From: Patescibacteria group bacterium
GTDB lineage: Bacteria > Patescibacteriota > Patescibacteriia > UBA2591 > JAQUPP01
Assembly (NCBI GenBank): GCA_041649955.1
Contig: JBAZMD010000004.1
Span: 1-62,671 of the forward strand
Reading direction: 5' to 3'
DNA length: 62,671 nucleotides
Both the position numbers and the translations under genes were made by a program. Numbering within the stretch: the stretch's first letter is position 1; every line of letters begins with the position of its first letter. Below the pieces are notes generated by a model. It was not told the origin of the DNA, searched no databases, and saw only the letters and a list, made by a program, of their open reading frames with translations. Below are positions 44,921 to 62,402 of the stretch, one piece after another.

Positions 44921-44961
44921 GAAAACGGGGCAGAAGCGCCCCAAGACCCAATAAAATTTCC

Positions 44962-46461: not shown

Positions 46462-46582
46462 AAACGTTATTTTAAATTATAGGCTTAATAAAAGCAAGAA
46501 ATTCTACTAGCCAGGGCTGTCACATTTTCCATTTTTTGACGTCTTAAATAATAAGAGGGCAAAAAAAATAACTCCTTCCGTG

Positions 46583-46611
46583 TTGACAATATTTTTCTGT
46601 TTTGCTACACT
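46583..46611 (+). promoter_or_regulatory. promoter upstream of the ParB-methylase/TerS/TerL operon
   Basis: TTGACA, 17 nt, TACACT. Confidence 0.6.
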
Positions 46612-46709
46612 TTAAAAGTACGGTACTTTAGAACAATTTAATTAATCGATCCAATTATTCTTATTCAGTTATAAAAACTGGCGGGCCACGATGCCTGGCA
46701 TAGTTAAAG

Positions 46710-46783
46710 CCACTGGTAAGTATTGGAATAATCACCTAAATAGGTGAGTATTTCCAGTATTAACCAGTGGTTTTTTGGTTTTT
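46710..46783 (+). terminator. long-stem intrinsic terminator inside the operon leader
   Basis: ccactggtaagtattggaa / ttccagtattaaccagtgg (with G-U pairs), inner hairpin tcacctaaataggtga, then TTTTTTGGTTTTT. Confidence 0.65.
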
Positions 46784-46894
46784 AGTAAATACTCCGCTTT
46801 ATTTAGGGCAGGGTATTTTTATGTTTAAAAATAAACCACCACCTCAAAAAATTTAATAAAGAATTAAGTAACTTTTAATTTTAATTAAATTCAT

Positions 46895-48223
46895 ATGATC
46901 GATGTAACAAACAAACTTAATATCGTTTACGTTCCGATAAATTCTTTAAAGGCTGCAAATTATAATCCCAGAAAATGGGACCAAGCAGCCATTAAGAATT
47001 TAATTGAAAGCATAAAGAAATTCGGCATTGTTGATCCATTTTTAGTTAATAGCACTCCGGCCAGAAAAAATACTTTAATCGGCGGACACTTTAGATGGAA
47101 AATTGCCAAAGATTTAAAAATAGAAAGTGTACCGGTAGTATATATCAACATCCCGGATATTGAAAAAGAAAAAGAGCTGAACATTCGCTTGAATAAAAAT
47201 TTAGGCGATTGGGGTTGGGATTTGTTAGCGAATTTTGACGAAAAATTTCTGGCAGATATAGGGTTTTCATCTGAAACATTAGATCAAGTTTTTGGAATTG
47301 ATAATGACCCGGAAGTTTTCGACTTAGAGAAAGAACTAAAGAAACTTAGTATTGAAAAAGTTGAAGTTCAAAAAGGAGACATATACCAACTTGGACAGCA
47401 CCGGATGATGTGCGGAGATTCGACCATTGAATCCGACGTCTTAAAACTGATGGCCGGAGAGAAGGCGTCTCTTTGTCTGACCGACCCTCCGTATATATTA
47501 AATTATTTGAAGGGTAAGAAAAAACACGGTCAAGCCGCCACGGGATTCGGATATAAACGAGATCGGAGATATTTAGAAACAGATGAATTACCGCCCGACT
47601 TTACTGAAAAATGGATGGCAAATGTCTCCAAAGTTGCTAAACCCGATTTTTCCATTATCGTTTACGAGAATTGGAAAAACATCAGAACAATTTGGGGCGA
47701 GATGGAAAAATATTGGAAAGTTAAAAATATGTTGGTCTGGCATTTGCCGAATAGAACGCAGGGTTTTGCCGCAAAATACAAATTTTTTTCAAAGCATGAC
47801 ATCGCTATGGTCGGCGGTTCGGAAAAAATTGACTTAAACCTGAAATCCGAAACAGAATTACTGCAGAACGAATATGAAACGGCTTTGTTTGGAATTTCCG
47901 GCAAACCGCACTGGGAAGGATATGAAAAAGGAAAAAAGATTTGTCCAACAGACTTTATTGAATTTAAAGCGGATGATGCCAAACATTCTGGACAAGGAAT
48001 TATATTTGGCTGTAAACCAATAGAAATTCTTATCCCATACATTAAGGTTCTAACCGAAAGAAATGATTTAATTTTTGAACCCTATGGGGGAAGTGGAAGT
48101 CTGCTTATCAGTGCAACAAAAATGCAAAGACGTTGCAACTTAATGGAAAAAGTTCCTACGTACTGTGAAGTGATAAAGCGTCGCTGGGAAAAATTAACTG
48201 GTTTAAAAGCTAAAAAAATATGA
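46895..48223 (+). CDS. ParB-like nuclease domain fused to a DNA N6-adenine/N4-cytosine methyltransferase
   Basis: ParB-N motifs (YNPRKW, GGHFRW), then LTDPPY (motif IV) and a C-terminal EPYGGSGS (motif I). Confidence 0.8.
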   Translation: MIDVTNKLNIVYVPINSLKAANYNPRKWDQAAIKNLIESIKKFGIVDPFLVNSTPARKNTLIGGHFRWKIAKDLKIESVPVVYINIPDIEKEKELNIRLNKNLGDWGWDLLANFDEKFLADIGFSSETLDQVFGIDNDPEVFDLEKELKKLSIEKVEVQKGDIYQLGQHRMMCGDSTIESDVLKLMAGEKASLCLTDPPYILNYLKGKKKHGQAATGFGYKRDRRYLETDELPPDFTEKWMANVSKVAKPDFSIIVYENWKNIRTIWGEMEKYWKVKNMLVWHLPNRTQGFAAKYKFFSKHDIAMVGGSEKIDLNLKSETELLQNEYETALFGISGKPHWEGYEKGKKICPTDFIEFKADDAKHSGQGIIFGCKPIEILIPYIKVLTERNDLIFEPYGGSGSLLISATKMQRRCNLMEKVPTYCEVIKRRWEKLTGLKAKKI

Positions 48224-48618
48224 TCAGCGCCAAAGAAAAGAAATTATTATTGGAACATCTAAGTAAAACGCCGATCATAGAAATTGCCTGTAAACAAGCT
48301 GGCGTAAGCCGGGCAACGTATTACAGGCTGCGCAATAAAAGCGTGGATTTCAGAAAAGCGGCGGACTCAGCCATGGCAGAAGGAATTTTGCTGATTAATG
48401 ATATGAGTGAGGCCCAGGTTATTTCCTTAATCAAAGAAAAAAATTGGTCAGCTATAAGCTTCTGGTTAAAATCACATCATCATTCATACTCTGATAAGGT
48501 TGAGATCAGTAGGCGGATCACTGGCTCATTGGGAGAATTATCTCCAGAGGAAGAAAAAATTATCGCCGAAGCTATGAGACTAGCTTCAGGGGGCGCTATT
48601 AAAAAACAACGATTATGA
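48220..48618 (+). CDS. terminase small-subunit-like HTH protein
   Basis: ACKQAGVSRATYYRLRNK helix-turn-helix. ATGA coupling on both sides. Confidence 0.6.
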   Translation: MISAKEKKLLLEHLSKTPIIEIACKQAGVSRATYYRLRNKSVDFRKAADSAMAEGILLINDMSEAQVISLIKEKNWSAISFWLKSHHHSYSDKVEISRRITGSLGELSPEEEKIIAEAMRLASGGAIKKQRL

Positions 48619-49793
48619 AAATAGACGAAAAATACATCCAGAAAATCTGGGAAAATAAAAAGGTAAGACAATCCCTGGCCTTTAAGCATCCGCTTTGGTT
48701 TAGTCTCTTTTATCTCCGTCATCATTTCACTTATCCCTTGGCCCCTTTCCATTTGGAAATGTTTCACCTTATTAAGCATCAAGAATACGAGTTTATTGTT
48801 ATGATGGCTTTTCGCGGATCCGGCAAATCAACCATTATGAACATGTCCAATGTCCTCTGGTCTATTTTAGGCAAGCCGCAGAAAAAATTTGTCATTATTA
48901 TTAGTAAAACTCAGGAACAGGCTAAAAATCATTTCGCTAACATTAAGTCCGAGCTTGAAAATAATAAAGAATTAAAAGAGGATTTTGGCCCGTTTAAGGA
49001 AAGCCAAGACGCTTGGAATAGACTTTCTTTAGAGCTTGAATATCACGGCGCAAAAATTATATCGGCTACTCGAGATCAAAGTATCCGAGGATTAAGATAT
49101 AGACAGTTCAGGCCAGATCTTATTATCCTCGACGAAGCAGAAGACACCGATTTAACGGCTGATAATAATATAGACGGTAAGGCTTTCCTCCAAAAATTTC
49201 AAGACGAAATAATTCCTCTGGGCAGTAATAATACCAGAATTGTTGTTCTGGGTAATTTAATCTCCAAAGATTCTTTCATGATGCGATTGAAAGAAATAAT
49301 TGAGAAAAATAAGAATAATGGTATCTTTCGAGCTTATCCTCTTCTCGATGATAATTATGAAAATTTATGGCCGGATAAATTCTCAGATATTGAAATCATT
49401 GAGAAAATACGTGCTAAACTATCGAATCAAACATGGGCAAGAGAATATCTTTTAAGGCTCGATGGTCCGGACACACCAGATGACATTAAAGATGAACTGT
49501 CCGAACTTACAGTTGATTCGGAATTGGTAAAATTATCACATCAATATGAGAATGAATTATGTGATTCTAGGGTTCAACTCCCGTTGATAAAACAAATGAA
49601 AAAATTCAGTATCAGCGCTCCGAAAATTGAACCTGACCCCGAAATTATTATTCAGTCTGATGATCTGCGATATCCGATATATCAAAAATATTTGGAAGTG
49701 TCGAAAAAAATTAGCGATGAACTTGCCGCTTCTCTAAGAAAATTATTGGACGAGAGAAGAAAAAAATCTTCTGAGGGTTTAATCAGACATTAA
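48615..49793 (+). CDS. terminase large-subunit-like ATPase; the nuclease domain appears truncated or replaced
   Basis: PFHLEMF, Walker A FRGSGKST and Walker B LIILDEAED. Only 392 aa, with a low-complexity C-terminus. Confidence 0.65.
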   Translation: MKIDEKYIQKIWENKKVRQSLAFKHPLWFSLFYLRHHFTYPLAPFHLEMFHLIKHQEYEFIVMMAFRGSGKSTIMNMSNVLWSILGKPQKKFVIIISKTQEQAKNHFANIKSELENNKELKEDFGPFKESQDAWNRLSLELEYHGAKIISATRDQSIRGLRYRQFRPDLIILDEAEDTDLTADNNIDGKAFLQKFQDEIIPLGSNNTRIVVLGNLISKDSFMMRLKEIIEKNKNNGIFRAYPLLDDNYENLWPDKFSDIEIIEKIRAKLSNQTWAREYLLRLDGPDTPDDIKDELSELTVDSELVKLSHQYENELCDSRVQLPLIKQMKKFSISAPKIEPDPEIIIQSDDLRYPIYQKYLEVSKKISDELAASLRKLLDERRKKSSEGLIRH

Positions 49794-49809
49794 ATATTAA
49801 TAATTTACC

Positions 49810-49850
49810 AATAACAAAAACCTTCCAGTAAGGATGGTTTTTGTTATTCT
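49810..49850 (+). terminator. terminator of the packaging-like operon
   Basis: aataacaaaaacc...ggtttttgttatt stem. Confidence 0.75.
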
Positions 49851-49899
49851 CTAATTCACGGTTTAGTAATTAATCTATTTATAGATCTTTGACGCTTGT

Positions 49900-50070
49900 T
49901 TATTCGGGAATCTTCTTAACTTGGGAATTATCATTAATTTTTTCCAAATTATTATTGATTTTTTTCAATAATGGAACAATTTCATTGATTCTCCAATACC
50001 AGTGTACAACATCACGAAAAATCAAAAATAGAAAGATGAATATTGCGACGGAAAATATTACATAACCCAT
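49900..50070 (-). CDS. possible 56-aa single-TM protein
   Basis: Below the track cut-off. Reads MGYVIFSVAIFIFLFLIFRDVVHWYWRINEIVPLLKKINNNLEKINDNSQVKKIPE. Confidence 0.4.
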   Translation of the reverse strand: MGYVIFSVAIFIFLFLIFRDVVHWYWRINEIVPLLKKINNNLEKINDNSQVKKIPE

Positions 50071-50230
50071 AATTTTGATATTTTAAAACAAATTATTTAT
50101 TATTAGATATGTGATGAATAATGATTATTATTCTGTCGGAACAAATTAACGTGGCACCCAACCACTATGTCCGACCATTTTACCATTTAATATTTTCACT
50201 TCTATTAGAGTCTGTGACTCAAGATATAAG

Positions 50231-51169
50231 TTATTCAACTTTTTTCAAGACCCAATCAAAAAGTCCGGAGTTTATGGCTAATTCTGCAATCTTATCAGAA
50301 AAATATAAGTTTAGATTATCAACATCATTTATATATTTTTCTAAATCTCCTTGTGGCGTATGGGCCACATAAAAAAATCTGTCATAATCAGTCATTCTGG
50401 TAAATATTTTTTTATATTTATTAAATTCAGCTACATTGGTTTGACATTTTATTTGTACCACCGCTTTCTCTTCGGTAATGGGATGGAAAATAGCTAAATC
50501 TATTAATTTTGTGGTTTTACCCACCACCCCCAATCTTTGCCATCCGCCAGCTCTAAAAATAAGGTCAATTAAGAGCTCAAAATCTTTGGGATTAAGCTTC
50601 TTAATTAACAAAATTAGCCTGTCTTTTAGCTGGCCAAAAGATTCTTCGGCCTCTTTTATTTCTTTTGACTGTTCTCCGGTAATTTTTTTAATCAAATAAT
50701 CTTTTTCATGTACAGAACAAATCGTTCCCTTAAAACCTTGGGTTTTTGAAAGTTGACCGCTAATATTTTCTAAAAATAAGGTTTTACCTTTTAAATCCTG
50801 GCAAGACCACCTGCCAATTACTTTCCTAGCCCTACTTTTATCTTTTTGAACAAATACTTTTTTGTCGGAAAAACACCAATAGAGCTTATTATTATAAAAA
50901 GTTATCCACAAAACATTTTTATCTTCTTCATAAAAATATTTAATTTGAGTAGCATGAAAAGTAACCACTTGGTTTGAGAGGCCACGTTTCTTATGATAAT
51001 AATCCTTTATCTTCTGCCATTGGCCACAAGAACAAAGAGTATTATCAGCATCATTATAACCAATTTTCAAAATGTTTTTTTCTATACATTCTTTTTCAAA
51101 TTCTCCACCACGACCTAATTTAATGAAAAGAGCTTTCTCAACTTTATTTAATTTTTCTTTTATATTCAT
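50231..51169 (-). CDS. Mrr-type (PD-(D/E)xK) restriction endonuclease domain protein with an unassigned N-terminal domain
   Basis: C-terminal FELLIDLIFRAGGW...LIDLAIF...AVVQIKCQ matches the Mrr_cat D...(E/Q)xK layout. The N-terminal 190 aa are unassigned. Confidence 0.6.
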   Translation of the reverse strand: MNIKEKLNKVEKALFIKLGRGGEFEKECIEKNILKIGYNDADNTLCSCGQWQKIKDYYHKKRGLSNQVVTFHATQIKYFYEEDKNVLWITFYNNKLYWCFSDKKVFVQKDKSRARKVIGRWSCQDLKGKTLFLENISGQLSKTQGFKGTICSVHEKDYLIKKITGEQSKEIKEAEESFGQLKDRLILLIKKLNPKDFELLIDLIFRAGGWQRLGVVGKTTKLIDLAIFHPITEEKAVVQIKCQTNVAEFNKYKKIFTRMTDYDRFFYVAHTPQGDLEKYINDVDNLNLYFSDKIAELAINSGLFDWVLKKVE

Positions 51170-51189
51170 ATTTTTAATTTATTAAATTA

Positions 51190-51360
51190 TTAGAGATGGA
51201 TCAGAATTGGCGTAAATACATAAAGCCCGCCGCTAGCGATGACTTGCGTCACCCATACTCCCTTTCGAGAATATGACCGGTAAAGGTAGCTCTAACGACG
51301 AGCCTAATATCCTTTACCGGATTTTTTCTGCCATGCCCACGGAGAATCCATGAGTTTAGG
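51190..51360. ncRNA. GC-rich structured spacer (candidate sRNA, or a structured 5' leader of the Mrr-like gene)
   Basis: 10-bp stem ccggtaaagg/cctttaccgg (51277-51320) followed by TTTTTT on the plus strand. Hairpins cgctagcg and tgacttgcgtca. Distal atggat/atccat pairing. Confidence 0.35.
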
Positions 51361-51441
51361 CAAATTAAATTGTTAACTTAAATATAGCATAAAAAACTAA
51401 AAAGTGAAACTTGAGTTACCTACAAGTTATCTACTCTAATT

Positions 51442-51472
51442 AAAAACGAGGTGCTATAAGCATCTCGTTTTT
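51442..51472. terminator. bidirectional terminator ending the orphan operon
   Basis: aaaaacgaggtgc...gcatctcgttttt. Confidence 0.75.
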
Positions 51473-51496
51473 AATAGATATTTTATGAAGATTGAA

Positions 51497-51694
51497 TCAT
51501 TTTTTAAGAATAGAAGCTATTAGTGCAACCACTGATAAAATTATTAAGACAATAAAAACGTTACTTATTTTTTTCGCAATTCCATTAACAACGTGGTCGC
51601 CCACGGTCTTCCAAAAATTTTTAGTAAAAAGAATACGTATTAACCATGAAACTAGTATGACTATAATTATTGCAATTAATATTTGACTTAGCAT
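51497..51694 (-). CDS. small 2-TM membrane protein (65 aa), last gene of the orphan operon
   Basis: MLSQILIAIIIVILVSWL...VFIVLIILSVVALIASILKK. The track ORF extends to 51793 but then overlaps the 980-aa gene. Confidence 0.45.
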   Translation of the reverse strand: MLSQILIAIIIVILVSWLIRILFTKNFWKTVGDHVVNGIAKKISNVFIVLIILSVVALIASILKK

Positions 51695-51743
51695 AAATTT
51701 ATATTTAATTACGTAGTTAAAACAAGTCGCCAGAAAAAATACT

Positions 51744-54686
51744 TTAATCAAGAATATCCTTAAGTCCCCAAAATGCGCTACTTCCTTTCTCAATAAGCGT
51801 ATTTATTAAATCTGTCACTTTTTGTTTTATCGTATTATCACCGTTTTTATAGATAGTCGTTAAGGCTTCTTTGATTTCAGTATGATGTATAAGAGGTGCA
51901 CGACGGTTCTGGATCAGATTGTTTTTTGAGTCAAGTAGATAGTTTGAAATAATTTCCAATGTCTTCCCCCCATTTTTTTCTGCAAAGGTAGGTAATCGCT
52001 TTAAAAGCCCATAGTCCCAATCAATCTCGCCGTTAGACTTTTTAAGCGTCTCTGCTATTTTCTCAACCACGATTTTATCATCTAATACTTCTATCTCTCG
52101 ATTTATCCAAAAACCAAAACCAGATAAAGCTTTTGGCTCTGAAACATTTTTCAAGGCCCAATTCCAAAATTTAATAAGTTTTTCCTTACTTACCTTATTT
52201 TCTTTTAACCATTTGTTTCCGGCTTGATCTCGTGTTAAGCAACTACGTCCGATAAACGATATAAATTCTTGGTGTCGGGTTGTGTTGGGAGTATTCCAGA
52301 ATTGTATAAATAAAGGATCGCTTATTTTTAAACCTAAGTGAGCAAAAGCAAGTGCGAGATGAATTGCCAAAGATTCATCAAGACCCTTTGAATATTTCCT
52401 TTGAGTGTAATCTTTAGGATCAAGCGTGATTGCGTGGCTATAGTAATCTTTAAGTTTAACGAATAACTTGTCGTATAAAGTATTTGATAGATAACCCTCC
52501 CATGACGCTAAGTAGGTATCTTTTTTATTCGGATCATCTTTGGGAAAAATCTCGAGAAAGAGACCAGCTATAAATTTTTTATCTCGAAAATAAAACGGTG
52601 CTAAATATCGGCCGATAACAAACCGGACAGCAAGAGAATCATCAGTAAGAGCCTTTTTATAAAATTCTTTAACATCATCTGCCAGGGTTTCCCCATCATT
52701 TTCGGTAAACACAACAAATGCTTCATAGGCTCGTCCCCGGACAGAATTAATGGCTATATGATATAGCTCACCATATTCTGGTTTTTCGTCTTCTTTTGAT
52801 GGACTATCTTTAATGGTAAACAAGTATGAAATCAAATTCTTGATTTTTTCTCTGTATTCTTTACGAACTTGCTCTTTCATTTCCTTGTTTTCCAAAATAT
52901 AAAGCAAAATATCTGCAATTACTTTATGGACAGTTACCCAATCGGCTAACCAAGACTTGTCATTTTTTCTTTTAAATGGTGTTTTCTCTCCCTCGTTTTT
53001 AATCACTTCGAATAGACCAAAGATCTGATTAATTTGATCAAAGGTTAATAATTGCTTATTGCGAAGCATTTCTTCAATGCCACGTAAAAGTGAATATAAA
53101 TAGTGAGGATGAATATCATCCCTATCAAAAAAAGAATTAATATTATTTAAATATTCCTCCGTTCTTTTTTTAATATCTTCTTTTAGGGCATCACCAAGGC
53201 CTTCAACGCCACGAGGATTTAAAAAATCATCATCTTTAAATTGCTCATTTAGCTTCTCTGCTGTCCATTTAGTTTTTAAATTCGCGACAATTTGATCAAT
53301 CATGAAATCATTAAGATTTACTGGGGACCTGTGTTGTACTGTACCACCTCTTATTTCGCCAATTGATGGTTCTGGTGTGTTATTAATTTTGTCTGGGGAA
53401 ATTCCAAATTTTCCCTCTGCCTGTTTTTTTTCATCGGGAGTAAGGTGATCCTTAATAAAACCGAGAATCTTTATACCATCTCGTTCTCTCCATTTTTTCT
53501 TATCTTTATCTTCAAGCTCCGATCCAAAATATTCAAACACTTTTTCAACATATTTTCTTTGTTCTGTTTTTGGATCAAGGACGCCAAAACCTCGAATTAA
53601 CGCTTGATGATATTCGGATCCGCTCTCAATCTCGAAATATCGCTCACCAACATCAAATACCTTAAAGAATGCATCTTGTAATTCTTTTTTAAATGTTTTT
53701 GGACACTGTGCCAGAGCGAACAATCTCAACCGCCACATTGAACGACATGAAGGCAGTTTATTAATATATTCAAATAATCTTTTTGCTTCATTAACATCAC
53801 CACATTTCTTGCCAATAGTTCTCTCAATTAACTTCTTAATAGTAGCGGCGAGATTTTTTACATCCTCTCGATATGAGACACTTCTCTTGTTCTGAATTTC
53901 AAGCGTGAAGAAATCAACATCAAATAAAGAGAAGAAATCTACATAATCAAAAACTTTTGTTTCGTTAAGTTCAGACAATTTTATAATCTCCGCCATTATG
54001 CCGGTAGTAATTTGAAGCGCTTTTTCTATGTAAGATTCATCGAGGTTCGTCAGTGCCTCAAAAATACCAGAATCATTTAAATCACTGATATAAAAAGGGT
54101 TATCCATACTACAGCCAATTTCTTTTTTCGCAATTTCTGTTTTGCTTCTTATGGTAAGAATGGCTTGAGCTAATTCTAAAATTGCATCGTCTTGTTTTTT
54201 CTCAACTAATTTCTTAATAATTTTTTCAAAGTCATAACCGGATTTGCGCAAATTTTTTATTAAGCAAACCCACTTTTCGTCTCTTATTTTAGCCGTGAGC
54301 ATTTTTATTTGTTCAGCTGGAAGCTTGTCTATGATCCACAAGAAGCGTTCAATAACCTCAGAATTAAACTTTTCTTTTTTGGTAGCAGTGTCTTTATCAA
54401 GTATAATTTCCGTAACCTTGGTGGGGTTTTTCTCGGCCATTCTTTCTAAATAATCAAGCCCTGAAATGCGATAAGAGCGTTGAGTAGAATTTTCTGCATT
54501 ATTTTTTATTTCATCAAGAAAACCTTCTTGCCAAAGCCAAGCGAGCCAAGATTCATCAGCTTGGGAGAAAAAAAATCGTTTAGCATCATCGTTTAAGAGT
54601 AAACCTCGAGCGACTTTAACGTCCGCAGATTCAACACCTGCTTTAAAAAATTCTTCTATTTTTTTATGTAATGCAAGTTGATTCAT
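51744..54686 (-). CDS. large hypothetical protein (980 aa), sequence pattern suggests a helical-repeat fold
   Basis: Uninterrupted 2.9-kb ORF. No Walker, nuclease, TIR/SIR2 or other catalytic motif found by eye. Confidence 0.75.
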   Translation of the reverse strand: MNQLALHKKIEEFFKAGVESADVKVARGLLLNDDAKRFFFSQADESWLAWLWQEGFLDEIKNNAENSTQRSYRISGLDYLERMAEKNPTKVTEIILDKDTATKKEKFNSEVIERFLWIIDKLPAEQIKMLTAKIRDEKWVCLIKNLRKSGYDFEKIIKKLVEKKQDDAILELAQAILTIRSKTEIAKKEIGCSMDNPFYISDLNDSGIFEALTNLDESYIEKALQITTGIMAEIIKLSELNETKVFDYVDFFSLFDVDFFTLEIQNKRSVSYREDVKNLAATIKKLIERTIGKKCGDVNEAKRLFEYINKLPSCRSMWRLRLFALAQCPKTFKKELQDAFFKVFDVGERYFEIESGSEYHQALIRGFGVLDPKTEQRKYVEKVFEYFGSELEDKDKKKWRERDGIKILGFIKDHLTPDEKKQAEGKFGISPDKINNTPEPSIGEIRGGTVQHRSPVNLNDFMIDQIVANLKTKWTAEKLNEQFKDDDFLNPRGVEGLGDALKEDIKKRTEEYLNNINSFFDRDDIHPHYLYSLLRGIEEMLRNKQLLTFDQINQIFGLFEVIKNEGEKTPFKRKNDKSWLADWVTVHKVIADILLYILENKEMKEQVRKEYREKIKNLISYLFTIKDSPSKEDEKPEYGELYHIAINSVRGRAYEAFVVFTENDGETLADDVKEFYKKALTDDSLAVRFVIGRYLAPFYFRDKKFIAGLFLEIFPKDDPNKKDTYLASWEGYLSNTLYDKLFVKLKDYYSHAITLDPKDYTQRKYSKGLDESLAIHLALAFAHLGLKISDPLFIQFWNTPNTTRHQEFISFIGRSCLTRDQAGNKWLKENKVSKEKLIKFWNWALKNVSEPKALSGFGFWINREIEVLDDKIVVEKIAETLKKSNGEIDWDYGLLKRLPTFAEKNGGKTLEIISNYLLDSKNNLIQNRRAPLIHHTEIKEALTTIYKNGDNTIKQKVTDLINTLIEKGSSAFWGLKDILD

Positions 54687-55329
54687 ATTTTATTTTTTTT
54701 TCATCATAAAGGAACTCTGAAAAAATTTTATAAAAATTAAACACAAAAATTATACAAAAGCTTTCAAAAATACTCTCAAATGTTTCAAGGTCAAGATATT
54801 TTTCAAATTGGTCTGGGATTTGAATTTCCTCTTTGTCTAAATCTTTAACCAATTTCGATATCTCTTGTGCCGCATTATAACTTCTCTCATAATTAAGATG
54901 AACAATCTCACTAAGGAAGTTTTTTATTTTTTTATTCAGATCAAGTCTTAAGGAAATGTCTGGTCTCTCCGTATCAATGTTTTTATACCACTTTGTTAAA
55001 CTCGTTGGGTCTATAAATATATAAATTTCCCGGAGATCTGCCGCTATATGTCGAATTGTGAAAGAATCCTTTGTTTCAAATTTTGTACCAAAAAGAGTTT
55101 GTGAGTTCAATATTAAATCCATTACATTTATTGTTTTTCCATTCGAACTCGCGTTCCATAGCAATTGTAAATATAGGGATACTGCTTTGATTATTCCTTT
55201 CTTAATTGTTGTGAATAATTCAGGCCTTTTTCCAACTAGAGTAGACTCTACATCTAAAGAATACCCTCGTTGCTTTTGCAAAACAGGATCAGTAGTTTTA
55301 TTAAGATTTTCTAAAACTTCATCTTCCAT
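54664..55329 (-). CDS. hypothetical protein (221 aa), overlaps the 980-aa gene start by 23 nt
   Basis: ORF only; the overlap suggests translational coupling. Confidence 0.65.
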   Translation of the reverse strand: MEDEVLENLNKTTDPVLQKQRGYSLDVESTLVGKRPELFTTIKKGIIKAVSLYLQLLWNASSNGKTINVMDLILNSQTLFGTKFETKDSFTIRHIAADLREIYIFIDPTSLTKWYKNIDTERPDISLRLDLNKKIKNFLSEIVHLNYERSYNAAQEISKLVKDLDKEEIQIPDQFEKYLDLETFESIFESFCIIFVFNFYKIFSEFLYDEKKIKYESTCIT

Positions 55330-55443
55330 ACTTAATAATTTCTAATTACTTCCTTTTTTTCATATATTAAACTATAGAGCTTATACATCAGCCTGTCTAT
55401 CTGATGTATAAGGTCACTAACCTTTGTTTTTCTTTCTATCCAA

Positions 55444-55647
55444 TTAAAAAGCCAGGATCTTTTGATTTAACCTAATTTTAGTTTTTAGAATAAGAAAAGT
55501 GCCAAAAATAAGATCAATCGTTGATAAAGTAAAAATCACTGGGTGATTTTCTATTTTATTCAATACGGGTAAAGTCAACTGATTAATAACTATCAGCGTT
55601 TGGTGTAAGAGTGTTGAAATAAAGTTGTCAGGTATAGGAATATACAT
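55444..55647 (-). CDS. possible small hydrophobic protein (67 aa)
   Basis: ORF only; no SD seen. Confidence 0.3.
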   Translation of the reverse strand: MYIPIPDNFISTLLHQTLIVINQLTLPVLNKIENHPVIFTLSTIDLIFGTFLILKTKIRLNQKILAF

Positions 55648-55691
55648 AAATTTACTTTACTAAGTATTTTATTAGCCAGGTAGTCAAGGGC

Positions 55692-56423
55692 TTATGGTTC
55701 ATAATACCAGCTATTATTTCCATAATTATAGACAAATCCCGTTGGAAGTTTTTTTTCAATTAACCTATCGGCCTCATCTTTAACTTCACATGAGATCCTT
55801 ATTTCTATTTTTTCTCTTTGTTTTGCTTTTTCTTTAACCCAATTAGGTATTCCTAATCCGGGTGCCATTATTTGAGAAAATGCATTAAGATTCCAGGCTT
55901 TAATTCCTCCATAATAACCTTCGGATACTTCTTCTACTTTATCGCCTGAGATAAACTTTATTTTTACATATGCTTTGTATTTCTTTGTTTCTTGATTTTG
56001 GATTACAAACCATACTTTCCAATCTTTCAAAAAGTCAAAATAAATCGTACCCGACAATACTGAGGCAATCTGATAACTTACCAACGCAGAATCATTTTTA
56101 TCAGCTACATTTTCACTCGTGGGCTGTAAAGTTTTTTGAGCTTCTTGTTCAATTAGTTTAACTTCGGCTCCTAACTTTTTATCTAGTAGTTTTTGATTCT
56201 GATACCATCTTCTTCCAGCCCATACCATAATCCAAATATTAATAATAAAAACCAGACTAAGTCCAATTACAAAACCAGGCCAAATATTTAATGCTAAGTT
56301 GCTAGAAATAAAAATTCCTATTCCACTTACCACAAACAAAATAGTCCCCAAAGACATTAAAAACTTATAGAAGTCATCATAAACTAATTTTGGTAATTCC
56401 ATGATATGTTTAAAAATTCTCAA
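55692..56423 (-). CDS. 3-TM membrane protein with a beta-rich C-terminal domain (243 aa)
   Basis: TTG start 11 nt after a GGAGGA SD. Hydrophobic helices lie between residues about 20 and 70. Confidence 0.6.
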   Translation of the reverse strand: MRIFKHIMELPKLVYDDFYKFLMSLGTILFVVSGIGIFISSNLALNIWPGFVIGLSLVFIINIWIMVWAGRRWYQNQKLLDKKLGAEVKLIEQEAQKTLQPTSENVADKNDSALVSYQIASVLSGTIYFDFLKDWKVWFVIQNQETKKYKAYVKIKFISGDKVEEVSEGYYGGIKAWNLNAFSQIMAPGLGIPNWVKEKAKQREKIEIRISCEVKDEADRLIEKKLPTGFVYNYGNNSWYYEP

Positions 56424-56500
56424 TAATTTTTATTTCCTCCAGCGTGAGGCCATAGAGTTTATAAACTGCCTCGTCTATTTGGCATTTAAGTTTTTTATTA

Positions 56501-57274
56501 TCATAATTTTTTGATTCTTAAATTACTAATTTTTACATATTTTCCTTCTTTTTCAATACCAATCCATCTTCGATTAAGTTTTTTTGCAACTACAGCCGTG
56601 GTGCCACTACCTAAAAATGGATCTAACACAACATCACCTCTATTACTTGAAGCTATTATAATTCTCTTTAGCATTTCTTCAGGCTTTTGTGTTGGATGAA
56701 CGGCTCTTCCATTTTTTTCTTTAACTCTTTCTTTGCCTTGTACTAATGGTAATTGCCAAACATCTCTCATTTGTTTTAATGATCCATCCTTCTGTTTTTC
56801 GGGATTCAGTTTCTTTAAATCTTCGTAATTAAAAGTCCATTTTTTCCCTTTAACAGCCCAAACAACAAACTCAGTAGAATGGGTAAAAACTCTTCGTGTC
56901 ATATTTGGCATTGCATTTATTTTTTGCCAAGTAATTATATTATTGATTTTAAAATTAAGCTGTTTAAGAACCATTATAATTTCTGAAATATTATGATGCG
57001 TACAAGATATATATATAGAACCACCATCTTTTAAAATTTTAAAAGATACACTGATCCACTTTCTAGTAAACTGAAGATATTCGGGTGCAGACATTCTATC
57101 CCATTCTTCATTGACCATATACCAATCACCGCCAGTTTTATTTCCTTTCCAATAAAGTCCATTTCCTGAAAGATTATAGGGAGGATCAGCAAAAATAAGA
57201 TCTATAGATCCTTCTTTTATTTCTTTTTTCATTATCTCAACGCAATCTCCTTTATAAATTATATTTGTTTTCAT
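56501..57274 (-). CDS. beta-class DNA methyltransferase (N6-adenine or N4-cytosine; CcrM/HinfI-like layout)
   Basis: FADPPYNL (motif IV) precedes DPFLGSGTTAVVAKKL..W.GIE (motif I). The ATG at 57272-57274 overlaps the endonuclease stop as ATGA (the track lists a TTG five codons upstream). Confidence 0.85.
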   Translation of the reverse strand: MKTNIIYKGDCVEIMKKEIKEGSIDLIFADPPYNLSGNGLYWKGNKTGGDWYMVNEEWDRMSAPEYLQFTRKWISVSFKILKDGGSIYISCTHHNISEIIMVLKQLNFKINNIITWQKINAMPNMTRRVFTHSTEFVVWAVKGKKWTFNYEDLKKLNPEKQKDGSLKQMRDVWQLPLVQGKERVKEKNGRAVHPTQKPEEMLKRIIIASSNRGDVVLDPFLGSGTTAVVAKKLNRRWIGIEKEGKYVKISNLRIKKL

Positions 57275-59214
57275 AATTTTTGTGTCCAATCATTAATTAA
57301 TACGGGTATTTTTTTACCCCATTCGATAGCATTTTTAGAACTCGGTATTTCAGATTTAATAATTTCAAACAAACGCTTCATGTCTTGAGTAGAGAATCTT
57401 TTTTGTTTAAAGACATTAAGAATGCCCTTAATTTGTTCTATATTTAGTGGAATAATTGTCATTTCAATTATATCATCGTCAATGGAATATTGTCTGTTAT
57501 TAAAAAATGTAAGTATTGAATTAGTATCGATATTAGGGGCAATAAAAAGGCCGAATACATCTTTTTGACCATTAAATTTTGATTGTATTTTGGCAACATG
57601 TCTTAGGACAGGTTCTGATTCACTACTCCACTGATTAGCTCTCATACTCAGAGTAACTTCTGTTACTAAAACGAAATTTTCATATTCAAATACCATATCT
57701 GGCTGGTTTCCAGCAGCATGATTTATAGGTTGTAATTCATCATCAAGTTTGAAATTTCTTGCTTCATAAGGCTTATTCGTAAGGGTGTCAATCGCCAAGA
57801 ATACTCTCCATGTATTCCATTCTAGATATGCTGGATAATAAGCTTCGCCTCCCAGAATTTGTTTAGTGAGAATTAAGTCGTAAAAATTAATTATGTCATC
57901 TACTTGTTTTTCTTCTCTCTGTGAATAATAAAATTCTATCTCTTTTAATTTAAGTAAGTTTGTTTCAATACTTCTGGTCTGTTGTTTTAATCCAATAACA
58001 TCTTGAGCGGGCGCAATATCTTTTCCAACTAAAGTCAATAATTCTCTTGCTCCAACTTTATTAAACAATACTTTTTCTTTGGCTTTTATGACAGATAAAT
58101 GATTTTTGAGGTAATCCGTTTTATCACTTGGGAGGGCCGGCAAAGAATCATTCCAAAGATAGTCGAGATATTCCTTATCTCCTATTAAATTCCATTTCTG
58201 AGAAAGTAAAGATTTAATAAGATCATCTTTTTCGGTTATCGTTATAAGTTTGTCTCTACTTACAGAAAATAATCCGCTTTTTCTTAAATATCTAGCGGTT
58301 AGATCCGCATAATCTCGAAGAGTTGCTATTTTAAGAAATAAGTAATAATTAAGAAATATTTTTTTAACCTCAATCGCCCCCCTTCCAGATTTTATTGTTT
58401 GAGTTATGGCGAGTTGAGTCTTTTTTGCTTTTATGGTGTTTGATCCTTTCCCGCCTTTAGTGATATCTGCTAATAATTGTTTACTCTGATTAGAAATTAT
58501 AAAGGCAGGATTCTTTTTATATCCAGCAACGAGTTTTTTTATTAAAATTACTCTTTCACTAATTTCATCATTAAATACTTCTTCAAGACGAGCGAGTTGA
58601 ACTTTTACATAGAATTCCTTTCTTTTCACCCGACCTTCAATTTTGCTTCTTTGAATTCTATAATCTTTAATCTGTTGAATCATTTTATCAACATCACTCA
58701 TTCTCACAGTGGTATTTAAAAATATACTTATTTCCTCTTTCGACAGTCCCTGCAATTCATAGGTTGTTTTTAAGCTAATAATAAAAGGCAACACGGAAAC
58801 ATTCTTAAATGATGCACCATTTTGTTTCGGTAGGGTACATGGTTTTTGGTATTTTAATAATTGTCGTAAGAAGACCTCATCTTCTATTTCGGGGTTATTT
58901 ATAAGAGATTCGCCAGCTTTAGTTATGATCACTGGTTTTTCTGAAGATTCATAAGCAAAACAAAACCCTAACTGATTTAACACTGATACCCATTTTCTTG
59001 CGTGCTCCTGTTTTCTAGCACTGGTCATACTCCTATAGTCACTTTCATCTATTTCGTAAACCTTATGTTCACGAAATAAGTTAAATAATTTTTCTTGCTG
59101 GGACGTATTCCATTCTTGACTATTAAAATAATTTTTTAATATTTGTAATCCTTCCCGTAATCTATTGGGATTGCGGACTGTAGTTGAGCCAATTGTCCAT
59201 TGAAAATATTTCAT
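57271..59214 (-). CDS. AlwI / N.BstNBI-family type IIS restriction endonuclease (or nickase)
   Basis: DDELQPINHAAGNQPDM...V(L)VTEVT...SESEPV..H catalytic-region block as I recall it from N.BstNBI/PleI/MlyI-type enzymes. The 647-aa size fits. Confidence 0.75.
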   Translation of the reverse strand: MKYFQWTIGSTTVRNPNRLREGLQILKNYFNSQEWNTSQQEKLFNLFREHKVYEIDESDYRSMTSARKQEHARKWVSVLNQLGFCFAYESSEKPVIITKAGESLINNPEIEDEVFLRQLLKYQKPCTLPKQNGASFKNVSVLPFIISLKTTYELQGLSKEEISIFLNTTVRMSDVDKMIQQIKDYRIQRSKIEGRVKRKEFYVKVQLARLEEVFNDEISERVILIKKLVAGYKKNPAFIISNQSKQLLADITKGGKGSNTIKAKKTQLAITQTIKSGRGAIEVKKIFLNYYLFLKIATLRDYADLTARYLRKSGLFSVSRDKLITITEKDDLIKSLLSQKWNLIGDKEYLDYLWNDSLPALPSDKTDYLKNHLSVIKAKEKVLFNKVGARELLTLVGKDIAPAQDVIGLKQQTRSIETNLLKLKEIEFYYSQREEKQVDDIINFYDLILTKQILGGEAYYPAYLEWNTWRVFLAIDTLTNKPYEARNFKLDDELQPINHAAGNQPDMVFEYENFVLVTEVTLSMRANQWSSESEPVLRHVAKIQSKFNGQKDVFGLFIAPNIDTNSILTFFNNRQYSIDDDIIEMTIIPLNIEQIKGILNVFKQKRFSTQDMKRLFEIIKSEIPSSKNAIEWGKKIPVLINDWTQKL

Positions 59215-59218
59215 ATTT

Positions 59219-60910
59219 TTATTTTGTTACTTTGCAATAAAATACTCTTTCGGTATGACCCTGAGTATCGCTTTTACCAGTAGTGAATCCTTTATAATCT
59301 CTCTCAAAAACCTCAACTTCACCTCGTTCTCTTAAAATCTCCATGATTCTTTTGTCTGATATTTTAGCATTTGATCTTTCATTTTTCTTTTCCCCAGTAT
59401 TATTATAAGAGAGTAATATATGATTTGTTTGAACGTTCTTAATTAGGTCATGTAATATTTGATCCGCTCCTTTAAGGCAATACCTGCTTTTTAAGTGATT
59501 CCGTTCTATCATTTTCTTGGCGACGCCCTCAACTTTTGGTTTTTTCCAAGTAATTACATTTTCAAGTAGGTGATAGGCGTCTCCATACTGTCTGGAATTA
59601 TATGGTGGGTCAATATAAATAACATCGCATTTTATTTCTTTTACCAATTGATTAGCATCTTTTTGGTATATTTCATTGTTAATATTATTTTTAGGATTAA
59701 TATCTGGCACTAAAAGTTTTATATTTTGTAAAGTATCGAGCTTCTTTCTGTAAGCTTCGTAATGACCAACGGTGTTCGCTACTTTGTCTATCGCATAAAT
59801 CAAAGAAGTGAGTAAAACATTCTTTTCCTCCTGATTAATTTTTTTTGTTTTATCAAGTTTTTCAATTTTTTCTCTGATTGCCCCGATTTTTAAAGCATTT
59901 TCTTCGGTAAAATATGATCCACCAAAAATTTTAGACATGTAGTTTTCTTTTTTTGGATTTAGATCATTTAAATAATCAATAATGGCTGTTATTTTTTCTT
60001 TATTATAATTCTTTGTTTTCAACCAGCAGTGGAGAGAGATATAACTGCTATCTAAAATATCATTAGAAATAATTTTAGTGTCCGGCTGATTGAAATATCG
60101 TCCAACAACACCTGTTCCAGCAAAGATATCACAAAAAGTATAATAACCACGACATTTGTCTGCGACGATATCTCCTATAAAACCTAATAATTTTGTCTTA
60201 TTGCCCAAGAAACGCCTATTATGTATCTGGAGGAGTTGCTCAGTTTTTTGATTTTGAGGAAACATAAATAATGGAAGCTGAGCAGGTTTTGGTAATGGAT
60301 CAAAACGGCTTCGGAATACACCAGTGACCTTGCCCCTAATTTGTACATCTTTTACAAGGATTGGTTTATAAGATTGATTAGCTGGTTGTAACCTAAACTG
60401 ATTCTTTTCTTTATAAATTCTCTTTAGCGTTGCCTCATTGTCATTGACAATAGCAACACCAATTTCACCGTTGTCTACTATGGGTTGTTCTCGGACGATT
60501 ACTGTGTCGCTATCAAAAATACCATCATCTTGCATGCTATCTCCTCGAACTTTTAGGGCGTAGTGTCGGCCTTGTCCAAGTGTCAATTCTTTTGGTATTG
60601 AGATTGTTTCCGGAATTTCTATTGCTTCTATTGGTTCGCCGGCTGCTATTATCCCAAGCAGGGGAATTTCTATAAAATTATAGTTTTTTTTTGGTTCAGA
60701 ATTAATTTCAATAGCTCTGGCCAAATTATCAAATTTTTTTATATACCCTTTATTAATTAGGGCGTTGATATGCTGATGAACAGTAGACACAGCAGATAGC
60801 TTGAGTCTTTTTTTTATTTCCTCAAGAGTAGGCGAATAACCCTTTTCATTAATAAATTTTTTGATGAAATCCAAGGCCTCTTTTTGTCTTTTTGTTATTG
60901 GAATAGGCAT
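59219..60910 (-). CDS. LexA (winged HTH + S24 self-cleaving domain) fused to an alpha-class (D12/Dam-like) N6-adenine DNA methyltransferase
   Basis: LexA N-domain GYSPTLEEI..VSTVHQHINALINKGYI; cleavage site AAGEP; GDSM serine and TLKR lysine. Then FLGNKTKLL, FAGTG (motif I) and YIDPPYNS (motif IV). Confidence 0.8.
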   Translation of the reverse strand: MPIPITKRQKEALDFIKKFINEKGYSPTLEEIKKRLKLSAVSTVHQHINALINKGYIKKFDNLARAIEINSEPKKNYNFIEIPLLGIIAAGEPIEAIEIPETISIPKELTLGQGRHYALKVRGDSMQDDGIFDSDTVIVREQPIVDNGEIGVAIVNDNEATLKRIYKEKNQFRLQPANQSYKPILVKDVQIRGKVTGVFRSRFDPLPKPAQLPLFMFPQNQKTEQLLQIHNRRFLGNKTKLLGFIGDIVADKCRGYYTFCDIFAGTGVVGRYFNQPDTKIISNDILDSSYISLHCWLKTKNYNKEKITAIIDYLNDLNPKKENYMSKIFGGSYFTEENALKIGAIREKIEKLDKTKKINQEEKNVLLTSLIYAIDKVANTVGHYEAYRKKLDTLQNIKLLVPDINPKNNINNEIYQKDANQLVKEIKCDVIYIDPPYNSRQYGDAYHLLENVITWKKPKVEGVAKKMIERNHLKSRYCLKGADQILHDLIKNVQTNHILLSYNNTGEKKNERSNAKISDKRIMEILRERGEVEVFERDYKGFTTGKSDTQGHTERVFYCKVTK

Positions 60911-61085
60911 GAATAATTGTTGATGTTTTAACTATAATTACTTATGATACTATTATACCGAAAATCTTACGAAAATGGAAGTATCAGCTTGTGGATTACT
61001 ATAAGTTATCAACTCACCCCATCTGGACTCCCTTGAGCCGTGCGTCATCAATGTTTCATAGAGATTAATTAATAATTTTAAATCT

Positions 61086-62402
61086 ATGGAACAAACAACA
61101 AAAATAAGGGTTGGACAACTGACTCAAGCACCGGCAGTAGTAATCAAGTATTGTCTCTATGCTCGCAAGTCGACCGAGCAAGATGATATGCAGGCACTTT
61201 CCATTGATTCACAGATTAAAGAGATGACAGAGATCGCCCAGCGGGATAATTTGCAAGTGGTAGAGATTAAGCGCGAATCCCATTCGTCCAAAGCAGTGGG
61301 CCAAAGGCCAGTCTTTAATCAGATGATTAGTGAACTCAAAGAGGGTAAATTCAATGCCATTCTAACATGGGCCCCTGATCGGTTAAGTAGAAACGCTGGA
61401 GACTTAGGATCCTTAGTTGATTTAATGGATCAGGGAGTACTAATAGAAATTAAAACTTATAGTCAGAAATTCACCAACAACCCAAATGAGAAGTTTTTGC
61501 TGATGATTTTAGGCAGTAATGCTAAATTAGAAAACGACAATAAATCAGTTAATGTTAAGCGAGGACTTAAGGCTAAGTGCGAGATGGGTTGGAAACCATC
61601 TATTCCACCCACGGGCTATTTAATGGAAAATCATATTGATAAACGAGGCCAAATTAGATTGGACCCTAAAAGATCGGTTATTATAAAACAGGTGTTTGAA
61701 AAAATTGTTTACGAAAACTGGAGTGGCAGAAAAACATATCATTGGCTATTAGAGATTGGTTTCAAAACTAAAAATGGTAAACGTCTATCGTTGGGTAACG
61801 TCTATATTCTACTTCGAAATACTTTCTATTATGGCGAGTTTGAGTTTCCGGCCAATAGCGGCCATTGGTATCAAGGTAAACACATGCCAATTATTACCAA
61901 AGAAATATTTGATAAAGTTCAAGAAGCCTTAGACCAGAATTATGTACCCAAAACAGAGAGCAAAGAATTCGCTTTTACTAAACTCATTAAATGTGGCTAT
62001 TGCGGATCGGGTATTACCGCTGACGAAAAATTTAAGAAATTAAAAGATGGCGGAGTCAATCGCCATGTTTATTATCGGTGTACCAAGGTTAAGAATATCG
62101 ATTGCAAAAATCAAGCTATTAACGAGCAAGATCTAATCAAAGAATTAATTGAAATGATCGATAAAATTAATCTTGATGAATTGGGTATTAAAACAAAAAT
62201 TGAAGATGAAATGATCAGATACAATAAATTTCAAATGGGCGTCTTGGGGACAATCAATAAGATTAAAATGAATACCGAAATCAACACTAGGAATTATGCC
62301 AAATACATTCTCAAAGAGGGATCACTGATTGAAAAGAGAGAATTACTGTCTTGTCTACAAAGTAAATTAATATTAAAAGACAAAAAGATTTGTGTAGAAT
62401 AA
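61086..62402 (+). CDS. large serine recombinase
   Basis: YARKSTEQDD catalytic-serine motif, DRLSRN, recombinase domain, and the zinc ribbon CGYCG...YYRCTK. Confidence 0.85.
   Translation: MEQTTKIRVGQLTQAPAVVIKYCLYARKSTEQDDMQALSIDSQIKEMTEIAQRDNLQVVEIKRESHSSKAVGQRPVFNQMISELKEGKFNAILTWAPDRLSRNAGDLGSLVDLMDQGVLIEIKTYSQKFTNNPNEKFLLMILGSNAKLENDNKSVNVKRGLKAKCEMGWKPSIPPTGYLMENHIDKRGQIRLDPKRSVIIKQVFEKIVYENWSGRKTYHWLLEIGFKTKNGKRLSLGNVYILLRNTFYYGEFEFPANSGHWYQGKHMPIITKEIFDKVQEALDQNYVPKTESKEFAFTKLIKCGYCGSGITADEKFKKLKDGGVNRHVYYRCTKVKNIDCKNQAINEQDLIKELIEMIDKINLDELGIKTKIEDEMIRYNKFQMGVLGTINKIKMNTEINTRNYAKYILKEGSLIEKRELLSCLQSKLILKDKKICVE

Follow-up and report, generated by a model that had tools for sequence, protein, structure and literature searches.

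A LexA-methyltransferase fusion at the head of an AlwI-family restriction-modification operon in Patescibacteria, with a proposed role in SOS-responsive control

Restriction-modification (R-M) systems must balance the killing of foreign DNA against the killing of their own host. Patescibacteria are thought to depend on R-M for much of their defence. Little is understood of the ways in which type II systems deal with DNA damage, recombination repair and under-methylation, and the damage response that is known, restriction alleviation, concerns type I enzymes. Such alleviation follows DNA damage (PMC3874165). In M.SsoII and M.Ecl18kI, a DNA-binding module joined to the N-terminus of the methyltransferase (MTase) by a flexible linker acts on an operator in the enzyme's own promoter region, regulating the R-M genes (PMC3978073, PMC2760811). 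Here we describe a protein of the same plan, with a candidate operator in its own promoter region, in which the N-terminal module is a complete LexA. It is encoded on contig JBAZMD010000004.1 of a Patescibacteria group bacterium (assembly GCA_041649955.1); we refer to the whole stretch analysed, 62,671 nucleotides (nt; 62.7 kb), as the window. The fusion gene, M1, is the first gene of an operon that also encodes an AlwI/N.BstNBI-family restriction endonuclease (REase) and a second MTase, M2. Several of these features had been pointed out in a preliminary description made from the sequence alone.

A LexA module fused to DNA methyltransferases

The open reading frame (ORF) of M1 had been read earlier as a LexA winged helix-turn-helix (wHTH), an S24 module and a D12 MTase, and profile searches agreed. 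All three Pfam matches (LexA_DNA_bind, Peptidase_S24 and MethyltransfD12, PF02086, the last with 113.8 bits over residues 234-466) far exceeded the Pfam cut-offs, and the whole protein scored 190.9 bits against the NCBIfam lexA model TIGR00498, for which the equivalog cut-off is 110.95. It is not, however, a stand-alone LexA of ~200 amino acids (aa), being 563 aa long with a C-terminal D12 MTase. The self-cleavage hallmarks named in the preliminary description fell into register with E. coli LexA in a HMMER alignment, i.e., AAGEP with VAAGEP (Ala84-Gly85), GDSM with GMSM (Ser119) and TLKR with TVKR (Lys156), and the N-terminus also aligned with the N-terminal domain of T. maritima LexA. In the MTase part the motifs follow the alpha/D12 order, with FAGTG (residues 263-267) N-terminal to DPPY (434-437). 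The PADLOC model MTase_II (PDLC03373) matched residues 227-562 with 382 bits, and the PADLOC R-M models matched the MTase part only. An AlphaFold2 model (mean pLDDT 77.8) contained three separately folded modules joined by segments of low confidence, one in the LexA hinge (residues 62-77) and one in the linker (202-224, pLDDT <50). When this model was searched with Foldseek, LexA structures ranked first, and the C-terminal part matched Dam and DpnM. The protein is a true three-module fusion of a LexA wHTH, an S24 domain and, after a flexible linker, an alpha-class adenine MTase.

Among 5.8 billion proteins searched for homologues, more than 85 clusters (60-91% identity, 555-566 aa) had the same three Pfam domains. 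They were drawn from NCBI, JGI, ENA and Logan assemblies, on contigs of up to 1.02 Mb, and all the named carriers were Patescibacteria (Daviesbacteria, WWE3, Saccharibacteria, Parcubacteria); viral contigs gave only two moderately related matches, with 51% identity. Conservation was assessed in an alignment of 78 full-length homologues of the same architecture (62-91% identity). Residues A90, G91, S125 and K163 were invariant in 78/78, and mean column identity was 0.83 in the wHTH, 0.82 in S24, 0.79 in the linker and 0.84 in the MTase. Because positions 1 and 2 of the wHTH codons were 84% identical pairwise but position 3 only 46%, the LexA part appears to be under purifying selection rather than decaying. 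The PGAP label on relatives is "transcriptional repressor LexA", and automatic annotation otherwise says "methylase"; each label misses the other half of the protein, which calls for caution in annotation.

When the fusion was scored against 1.84 billion cluster representatives, many matches covered only residues ~5-205 (40-60% identity), yet belonged to proteins of 307-890 aa. All 35 of the long LexA-headed proteins examined consisted of LexA_DNA_bind and Peptidase_S24 followed by a DNA MTase, with overlapping Pfam counts of 20 for N6_N4, seven for Eco57I, five for N6_Mtase, four for D12, three for C5 and two for TaqI_C. The equivalents of the cleavage site and of the Ser/Lys dyad were invariant in these 35 fusions, which come from other 50%-identity clusters. 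Their neighbouring REases in metagenome loci were of the MvaI/BcnI, BglII, TaqI and EcoRI types, usually encoded by convergent genes, and one other-family fusion had a co-directional AlwI-like REase gene. Throughout the loci examined, LexA was never seen on an REase, always on an MTase. A stand-alone LexA relative of 199 aa headed a lexA-vsr-C5 MTase unit (L190/L191; numbers with the prefix L are our handles for loci), and the other close stand-alone relatives were ordinary chromosomal lexA genes. Within this clade, LexA occurs in fusions with at least five MTase families, paired with at least five REase families. Whatever the MTase class or REase family, it is fused to the MTase (rarely, it lies just upstream), mostly in Patescibacteria. 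The fusion in the window is not a one-off: it is a member of a broad LexA-MTase class that lay beyond the scope of the preliminary description.

The genes that follow the fusion also occur behind other heads. Both RE_AlwI and M2 lay downstream in 16 of the 19 distinct LexA-D12 fusions with enough downstream DNA, an association for which a search had been proposed earlier, and the M1/RE_AlwI/M2 module recurred behind the fusion in unrelated neighbourhoods. Elsewhere, the same MTase core (~60% identical) was fused to RadC (UPF0758_N plus JAB) in place of LexA, and this RadC-MTase family (L005, L013-L017, L020, L022, L024 and L025; proteins P0091-P0120) headed the same RE_AlwI and M2 module. The RadC head consists of HhH and a JAB metallopeptidase-like domain, i.e., like LexA, a DNA-binding domain and a peptidase. 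The MTase core also exists without any N-terminal extension, and unfused homologues are widespread in many phyla. In L038, the stop codon of a separate 203-aa lexA (LexA_DNA_bind plus S24) overlaps the M1 start, and RE_AlwI and M2 follow; in L027, 425 bp separate lexA from the MTase gene downstream of it. Such unfused lexA-M-R-M versions are classic Rosetta-stone evidence, and would point to a functional link between LexA and the MTase. Upstream of the RadC-MTase gene there was a small XRE-type helix-turn-helix (HTH) gene in L015, L016 and L022, and recA directly upstream in L014. The 65-aa HTH gene of L015 ends 2 nt ahead of the RadC-MTase start codon, in the position of a C-protein gene; LexA-headed loci were without such a gene. 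One LexA-D12 fusion (L009, 7985-10565) was found without the REase and M2, with an Eco57I-type MTase and a BsuBI/PstI REase next to it instead, and is orphaned within an R-M cluster.

The linker contains QLPLF, and the motif QLP[LMF]F was present in 29 of 30 non-redundant fusions. RadC-fused versions carried Q[GNT][TS]LF[DA]LLE, and Q-x-[ST]-L-F was also seen in the nearest unfused MTases, which had QNSLF, QISLF or QIDLF at or near the N-terminus; distant homologues were without the motif. Apart from this motif (loci: the window, L005, L007 and L013-L037), the linkers of LexA- and RadC-fused versions were unrelated. The consensus for binding to the beta sliding clamp is QL[SD]LF, and the linker sequence suggests a beta-clamp-binding-like motif that would tether the methylase to the replisome. 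DnaN is encoded within the window, at 42062-43183.

A conserved direct repeat upstream of the fusion gene

As first described, the operon is divergent from a large serine recombinase gene, with which it shares a 175-bp spacer. The accompanying suggestion that the recombinase might be co-controlled did not hold up among relatives, where a divergent recombinase was present only in the closest one (L008/L090) and unrelated genes lay upstream elsewhere. What is conserved is the region next to the fusion gene, where an 11-bp-period direct repeat, the candidate LexA box, runs into a probable -10 hexamer (Table 1). About 39 unique loci, including fusions to other MTases, share CCATTTTCGTAAGATTTTCGGTATAMT upstream of the ATG, and TATAMT was kept at the -10 position in the alignment of 39 upstream regions. 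Pairwise identity of the cis element was 0.89, as against 0.31 for the distal flank and 0.46 for synonymous sites, and the element was kept upstream of LexA fusions to other MTases even though the LexA parts were only 54-64% identical.

The geometry of the repeat was more constant than its sequence. With offsets of 6-20 allowed, an offset of 11 was best or tied in 22/22 lineage representatives, and in distant lineages the repeat sequence differed while the geometry was the same. Because in some lineages the repeat stands in reversed orientation just downstream of the -10, it is probably an operator rather than a promoter element. The recognition-helix triad covaried with the half-site: S-T-x-H-Q-H went with TTTTCGG(T), H-F-H with TTTTCTA (6/7 lineages) and H-E-H with (T/C)TCGGG. 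The clade's ordinary chromosomal lexA genes (L188, L193) likewise had 11-bp direct repeats upstream, as expected under autoregulation, and the repeat of L149 was exactly GTTC-N7-GTTC. A direct-repeat LexA box of this type, GTTCN7GTTC, is established in Caulobacter and its relatives (PMC9578287). In the 62.7-kb window the candidate box had a single exact match, its 2-mismatch matches were at chance level, and none lay at ruvC; on this evidence it would be a local autoregulatory site.

The preliminary description had proposed a search of the spacer for a palindrome. A palindromic SOS box was considered there, but only weak AT-rich inverted repeats were found and the conserved direct repeat was preferred. 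There was also no small HTH ORF and no palindromic C-box in 60911-61085.

The second conserved component of the cassette is a DnaA-box-like element at its upstream edge, with the consensus TTATCCACA (TWATCCACA), which we take to be identical to the DnaA-box consensus. In the LexA-MTase genes (L001-L167) it stood in either orientation, 0-25 nt ahead of the repeats. With at most one mismatch, it was present in 56 of the 62 unique upstream regions and in 19 of the 22 lineages, being perfect in 14. The same element was seen in 2.4% of control windows, in 1/26 non-LexA heads and in no ordinary lexA promoter. Matches to TTATCCACA with at most one mismatch were also enriched in the window as a whole (36, versus 18.1 +/- 4.2 expected).

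The promoter cassette was not found upstream of the RadC-fused and unfused heads that were searched. In L101 (3490-4718; also in L095), the 3' end of the LexA-MTase gene carries an inserted second promoter cassette, TTTTCGCAATGTTTTCGGTATAAT, which precedes a wHTH-only LexA fragment of ~72 aa and then a 305-aa ORF. On the strength of this second copy, the LexA-promoter cassette appears to behave as a mobile, recombining module.

Closer to the gene, the sequence ACATCAAY is conserved ~10 nt upstream of the fusion ATG (60916-60925 on the minus strand; ~39 related loci), at the Shine-Dalgarno position; there is no AGGAGG-like sequence upstream of this ATG.

Self-cleavage as a proposed switch, and its alternatives

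Comparison across loci gives strong support to LexA as the probable controller of these R-M systems: the repeat is conserved, unfused lexA-M-R-M operons exist, a small HTH gene is found only in the LexA-less sister group, and the cassette is present on other MTases. We lean towards the view that LexA is an autorepressor of the R-M genes, and that its RecA-stimulated self-cleavage de-represses the methylase and the operon, an explanation that we regard as probable although some way from assured. The fusion would dimerise via S24 and bind the direct repeat TTTTCGTA/TTTTCGGTA that runs into its own -10. Once bound, it would repress the operon, taking the role that a small C protein or an N-terminal HTH has in other R-M systems. 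Filaments of RecA on single-stranded DNA (ssDNA), which would arise from DNA damage, from self-restriction of an under-methylated chromosome or from phage attack, would stimulate the S24 domain to cut at Ala90-Gly91. The cut would split the wHTH from the dimeric S24-MTase body, repression would be lost and synthesis of the MTase would go up. In the co-directional operon of the window the REase and M2 would rise as well; in the many relatives whose REase gene is convergent, induction would be limited to the MTase. The core logic would be an SOS-triggered boost to protective methylation, an equivalent, in type II systems, of restriction alleviation. We favour this protective feedback because the REase gene is convergent in most relatives, so that only the MTase is under the promoter. 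The operon in the window would also fit a damage- or phage-induced boost of defence, as with the CapH/CapP and CapW systems. What the comparison shows directly is the identity of the domains, the conservation of the catalytic residues, the recurring architecture and a conserved cis element that covaries with the recognition helix; that the protein binds the repeat, that it is cut in vivo and which way the physiological effect goes are what we infer.

Several points weigh against this autorepressor model. LexA dimers usually bind inverted repeats, and direct-repeat binding occurs in some lineages only. No recA gene lies within the 62.7-kb window. A sigma-70 promoter and terminator scan gave matches at the level of shuffled sequence and no canonical -35, and the overlap between the -10 and the operator is a probable one, read from conservation. 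In addition, the MTase would stay on the S24 dimer after the cut, so that methylation could, on balance, change in the opposite direction to that proposed, and de-repression in this operon would raise the REase too, blurring the "protective" reading.

The main alternative, which we think unlikely, is that the same cleavage triggers a loss of protection, in the manner of suicide or abortive infection. According to this explanation, cleavage would expose degrons, as in E. coli LexA fragments, the S24-MTase part would be degraded or inactivated, methylation would fall, and the REase would attack host or replicating phage DNA. This would accord with the placing of LexA, always on the MTase (the "antitoxin" of the R-M pair) and never on the REase, with the strict conservation of the catalytic residues, and with the position of the locus in a defence-island-like neighbourhood with Dsr1-like and Mrr-like genes; R-M systems also behave like toxin-antitoxin modules (PMC3874152). 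However, a cut at A90-G91 leaves the S24 dimer and the MTase whole, and the conserved operator on the fusion's own promoter predicts more MTase synthesis after cleavage. In this operon M2, the second MTase, carries no LexA and is CcrM-like, and would probably go on protecting GANTC-type sites on both strands; existing methylation also lasts for generations, which would make for slow killing.

A static controller is hard to reconcile with the conservation of the protease, and has in our judgement only a small chance of being correct. LexA would here be a C-protein substitute, i.e., an autorepressor and dimeriser, with cleavage having no physiological role, or else a module captured together with its promoter as an expression cassette. 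The Ala-Gly, Ser and Lys residues are nevertheless invariant in 78/78 and 35/35 sequences, in lineages only 30-60% identical in LexA, and S24 is as conserved as the MTase. What recommends the idea is that LexA plus promoter acts as a mobile module joined to many MTases, that the wHTH-only fragment behind the second cassette of L101 implies that a cleavage-less version can exist, and that MTase-fused HTH regulators without a protease are known (SsoII, Ecl18kI).

The fusion might also be the housekeeping SOS repressor, the only LexA of a reduced genome, with a genome-wide regulon and the MTase as a passenger. Its score above the lexA equivalog cut-off and the PGAP naming of its relatives would fit, chromosomal lexA genes of the clade use the same type of operator, and most of its nearest LexA relatives in metagenomes rich in candidate phyla radiation (CPR) bacteria are fusions. 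Against this stand the single box in 62.7 kb, with 2-mismatch matches at chance and ruvC without a box, the variable, mobile-element-like contexts of the cassette, and the many different LexA-MTase fusions, whose DnaA-box-like element is specific to them and absent from ordinary lexA promoters. We consider this improbable, although it is compatible with autorepression by LexA. An assembly or frameshift artefact that merged two separate genes can practically be discounted, in spite of the unfused versions in other lineages (L038, L027), since four independent data sources yielded at least 78 clusters with the same continuous frame, on contigs of up to 1 Mb, and the linker itself is conserved (0.79 mean column identity).

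A broader proposal goes beyond autorepression and RecA-stimulated cleavage. LexA-MTase fusions might form a general control hub for type II R-M in Patescibacteria, integrating RecA filaments (through S24 self-cleavage, as a sensor of self-restriction and DNA damage with feedback on protective methylation), replication initiation (through the DnaA box of the promoter) and the replisome (through the clamp motif of the linker, which would hold the methylase to newly made DNA), with RadC(JAB)-MTase as a parallel second sensor module. We offer this tentatively, as possible but on balance doubtful. A RecA-cleavable repressor within an MTase would, if true, be a simple and direct link from the SOS signal to modification and restriction, in a design apparently adopted by dozens of unrelated Patescibacteria R-M systems. 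The loci also form a natural set of LexA operators with helix/half-site covariation, useful for studies of LexA specificity, and a compact testable system, with one protein and one 30-bp site.

Operon partners, neighbourhood and known systems

The three ORFs of the operon are tightly packed on the minus strand of 56501-60910 (Table 1), and both downstream genes proved to be of the families named in the preliminary description. The REase gene begins 4 nt past the fusion stop. Its RE_AlwI match runs from position 2 to 439 of the 441 in the profile. Among solved structures its best match is N.BspD6I, a GAGTC nickase (164 bits, over two stretches that take in the recognition and catalytic parts), and the PADLOC REase_II and nicking-endonuclease models both match its product. 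Its TGA overlaps the ATG of M2, giving ATGA as reported earlier. The best solved relative of M2 is CcrM (GANTC; 205 bits), with FADPPYNL near the N-terminus and DPFLGSGTT near the C-terminus, but M2 is below the NCBIfam CcrM equivalog cut-off (261 versus 830) and is CcrM-like rather than CcrM. Homologues of M2, of 255-267 aa, come after the REase in related loci. Two versions of the REase, of 646-648 aa (as in the window) and 605-641 aa (L001 11700-13517, L011, L105, L108, L114), were only ~24% identical, whereas the MTases flanking them were well conserved (M1 78-84%, M2 65-67% identical). This points to replacement of the nuclease inside a fixed methylase frame.

The recognition site is probably of the GAGTC type rather than GGATC, given the closeness of the REase to N.BspD6I, the CcrM-like M2 and a mild avoidance of GAGTC. 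In word counts, GAGTC had an observed/expected ratio of 0.74-0.80, with z-scores of -1.4 for the window by itself and of -2.7 and -4.0 when related loci were pooled, while GGATC, at 1.1-1.2, was not avoided; such avoidance is suggestive, not decisive. A CcrM/HinfI-like M2 acting at GANTC would probably cover GAGTC on both strands. There is a GAGTC site at 61026-61030 on the minus strand, between the DnaA-like box and the recombinase gene, which is also present in L008, the closest relative; it could render the control region methylation-sensitive, or be there by chance. The most under-represented 5-mer in the window was AGACT/AGTCT (32 observed versus 62 expected, z -5.3), and TCGA was strongly avoided (observed/expected 0.55). 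Other R-M systems of the organism may have left both of these footprints.

The window is chromosomal, with ruvC, ftsH, dnaN and hup present. The R-M unit closes a region that also encodes a ParB-MTase, a terminase-like ATPase, an Mrr-like nuclease and a Dsr1-like protein, and the neighbourhood at 45376-56423 has the look of a defence or mobile island, with the serine recombinase as its boundary. Within 43-62.7 kb there was no tRNA gene. Directly past the M2 stop, at ~56424-56500 on the minus strand, the translation ends in IDEAVYKLYGLTLEEIKIIENF and a stop, a C-terminal tail typical of type I, type IIG and BREX N6-methyltransferases and apparently a remnant of another R-M gene. A long intergenic gap at 44623-45375, ~1.5 kb downstream of dnaN-hup, contains a perfect TGTGGATAA box (at 44879) and may be related to a replication origin.

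Table 1. Coordinates of the operon, its control region and neighbouring genes in the window
Feature	Position	Strand	Basis and remarks
LexA-S24-linker-D12 methyltransferase fusion gene (M1)	59219-60910	-	operon gene 1; 563 aa; ORF plus Pfam/NCBIfam domains
LexA winged-helix DNA-binding domain	60713-60901	-	residues 4-66; PF01726, 63.7 bits; recognition helix S-T-V-H-Q-H-I-N-A-L
S24 self-cleaving peptidase/dimerisation domain	60326-60664	-	residues 83-195; PF00717, 99.9 bits
Ala90-Gly91 of S24 domain	60638-60643	-	
Ser125 of S24 domain	60536-60538	-	
Lys163 of S24 domain	60422-60424	-	
Flexible linker	60218-60310	-	residues 201-231; holds QLPLF at 60266-60280 (residues 211-215)
Alpha-class (D12) N6-adenine DNA methyltransferase domain	59222-60217	-	residues 232-563; FAGTG, then DPPY
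AlwI/N.BstNBI-family type IIS restriction (or nicking) endonuclease	57271-59214	-	647 aa; PF09491 (RE_AlwI), 251 bits
Beta-class N6-adenine methyltransferase M2 (CcrM/HinfI-like)	56501-57274	-	PF01555, 216 bits; probable start ATG 57274
Intergenic control region	60911-61085		175 bp; operon versus divergent serine recombinase
Candidate LexA box, direct repeat	60956-60975	-	TTTTCGTA at 60968-60975 and TTTTCGGTA at 60956-60964; 11-bp period
Probable -10 hexamer TATAAT	60952-60957	-	2-nt overlap by repeat 2; 41 nt upstream of ATG
DnaA-box-like element	60990-60998	-	TAATCCACA, consensus TTATCCACA; upstream edge of conserved control cassette
Serine recombinase (large)	61086-62402	+	divergent from operon
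ParB_N+N6_N4 MTase	46895-48223		
Terminase-like ATPase	48615-49793		
Mrr_cat/PDC-S02 protein	50231-51169		
980-aa protein (Dsr1-like)	51744-54686		matches only C-terminal half of PADLOC Dsr1
Two small unknown partners of Dsr1-like protein	54664-55329 and 55692-56423		

Among described type IIS systems, N.BspD6I, N.BstNBI, PleI and MlyI (GAGTC) and AlwI (GGATC) share with this locus a full-length RE_AlwI REase flanked by two MTases. The locus differs in the low identity of its REase to N.BspD6I and in having no small-subunit gene, its GAGTC specificity is a prediction, and no system of this type has been described with a LexA-fused MTase. As anticipated in the preliminary description, the literature searched, including R-M reviews, contained no natural LexA-MTase fusion and none acting as an R-M controller, its "LexA-fused" matches being yeast two-hybrid constructs. 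This suggests that the LexA-MTase group of type II R-M systems is undescribed, as far as that literature goes.

Like canonical LexA (E. coli, T. maritima, Caulobacter), the fusion has a wHTH and S24, the cleavage site, the dyad and a promoter box, here a candidate one, and with Caulobacter LexA this box shares the direct-repeat type. Unlike canonical LexA, it is fused to a DNA MTase and belongs to R-M operons located on DNA of the mobile or defence-island type, the 62.7 kb contained no further boxes, and its promoter has an extra DnaA-box-like element. CapH/CapP, CapW/BrxR, DdrO/IrrE and ImmR/ImmA resemble the predicted system in that an immune-operon repressor is inactivated, often proteolytically, upon the appearance of ssDNA or DNA damage. 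They are, however, separate proteins, with a metallopeptidase plus HTH or a WYL sensor, and the descriptions of regulators of the CapH/CapP type concern CBASS, BREX, DISARM and the like; none is of a RecA-dependent S24 repressor on an R-M methyltransferase.

In C-protein R-M systems, too, a dedicated transcription factor heads the R-M unit and acts on its own promoter, as predicted here. The LexA-headed locus lacks both a separate small HTH gene and a palindromic C-box; the regulator is on the MTase, and it is predicted to be destroyed by a DNA-damage signal. Neither C proteins nor regulators of the SsoII/Ecl18kI type have a protease or a link to RecA. The fusion would work like the SsoII/Ecl18kI class without being homologous to it. 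M.SsoII and M.Ecl18kI carry an HTH of ~70 aa on a C5-MTase, with no protease, whereas the Patescibacteria proteins carry a full LexA of ~200 aa with its cleavage site and Ser/Lys dyad, a candidate operator built as an 11-bp-period direct repeat, and the same module on at least five MTase families.

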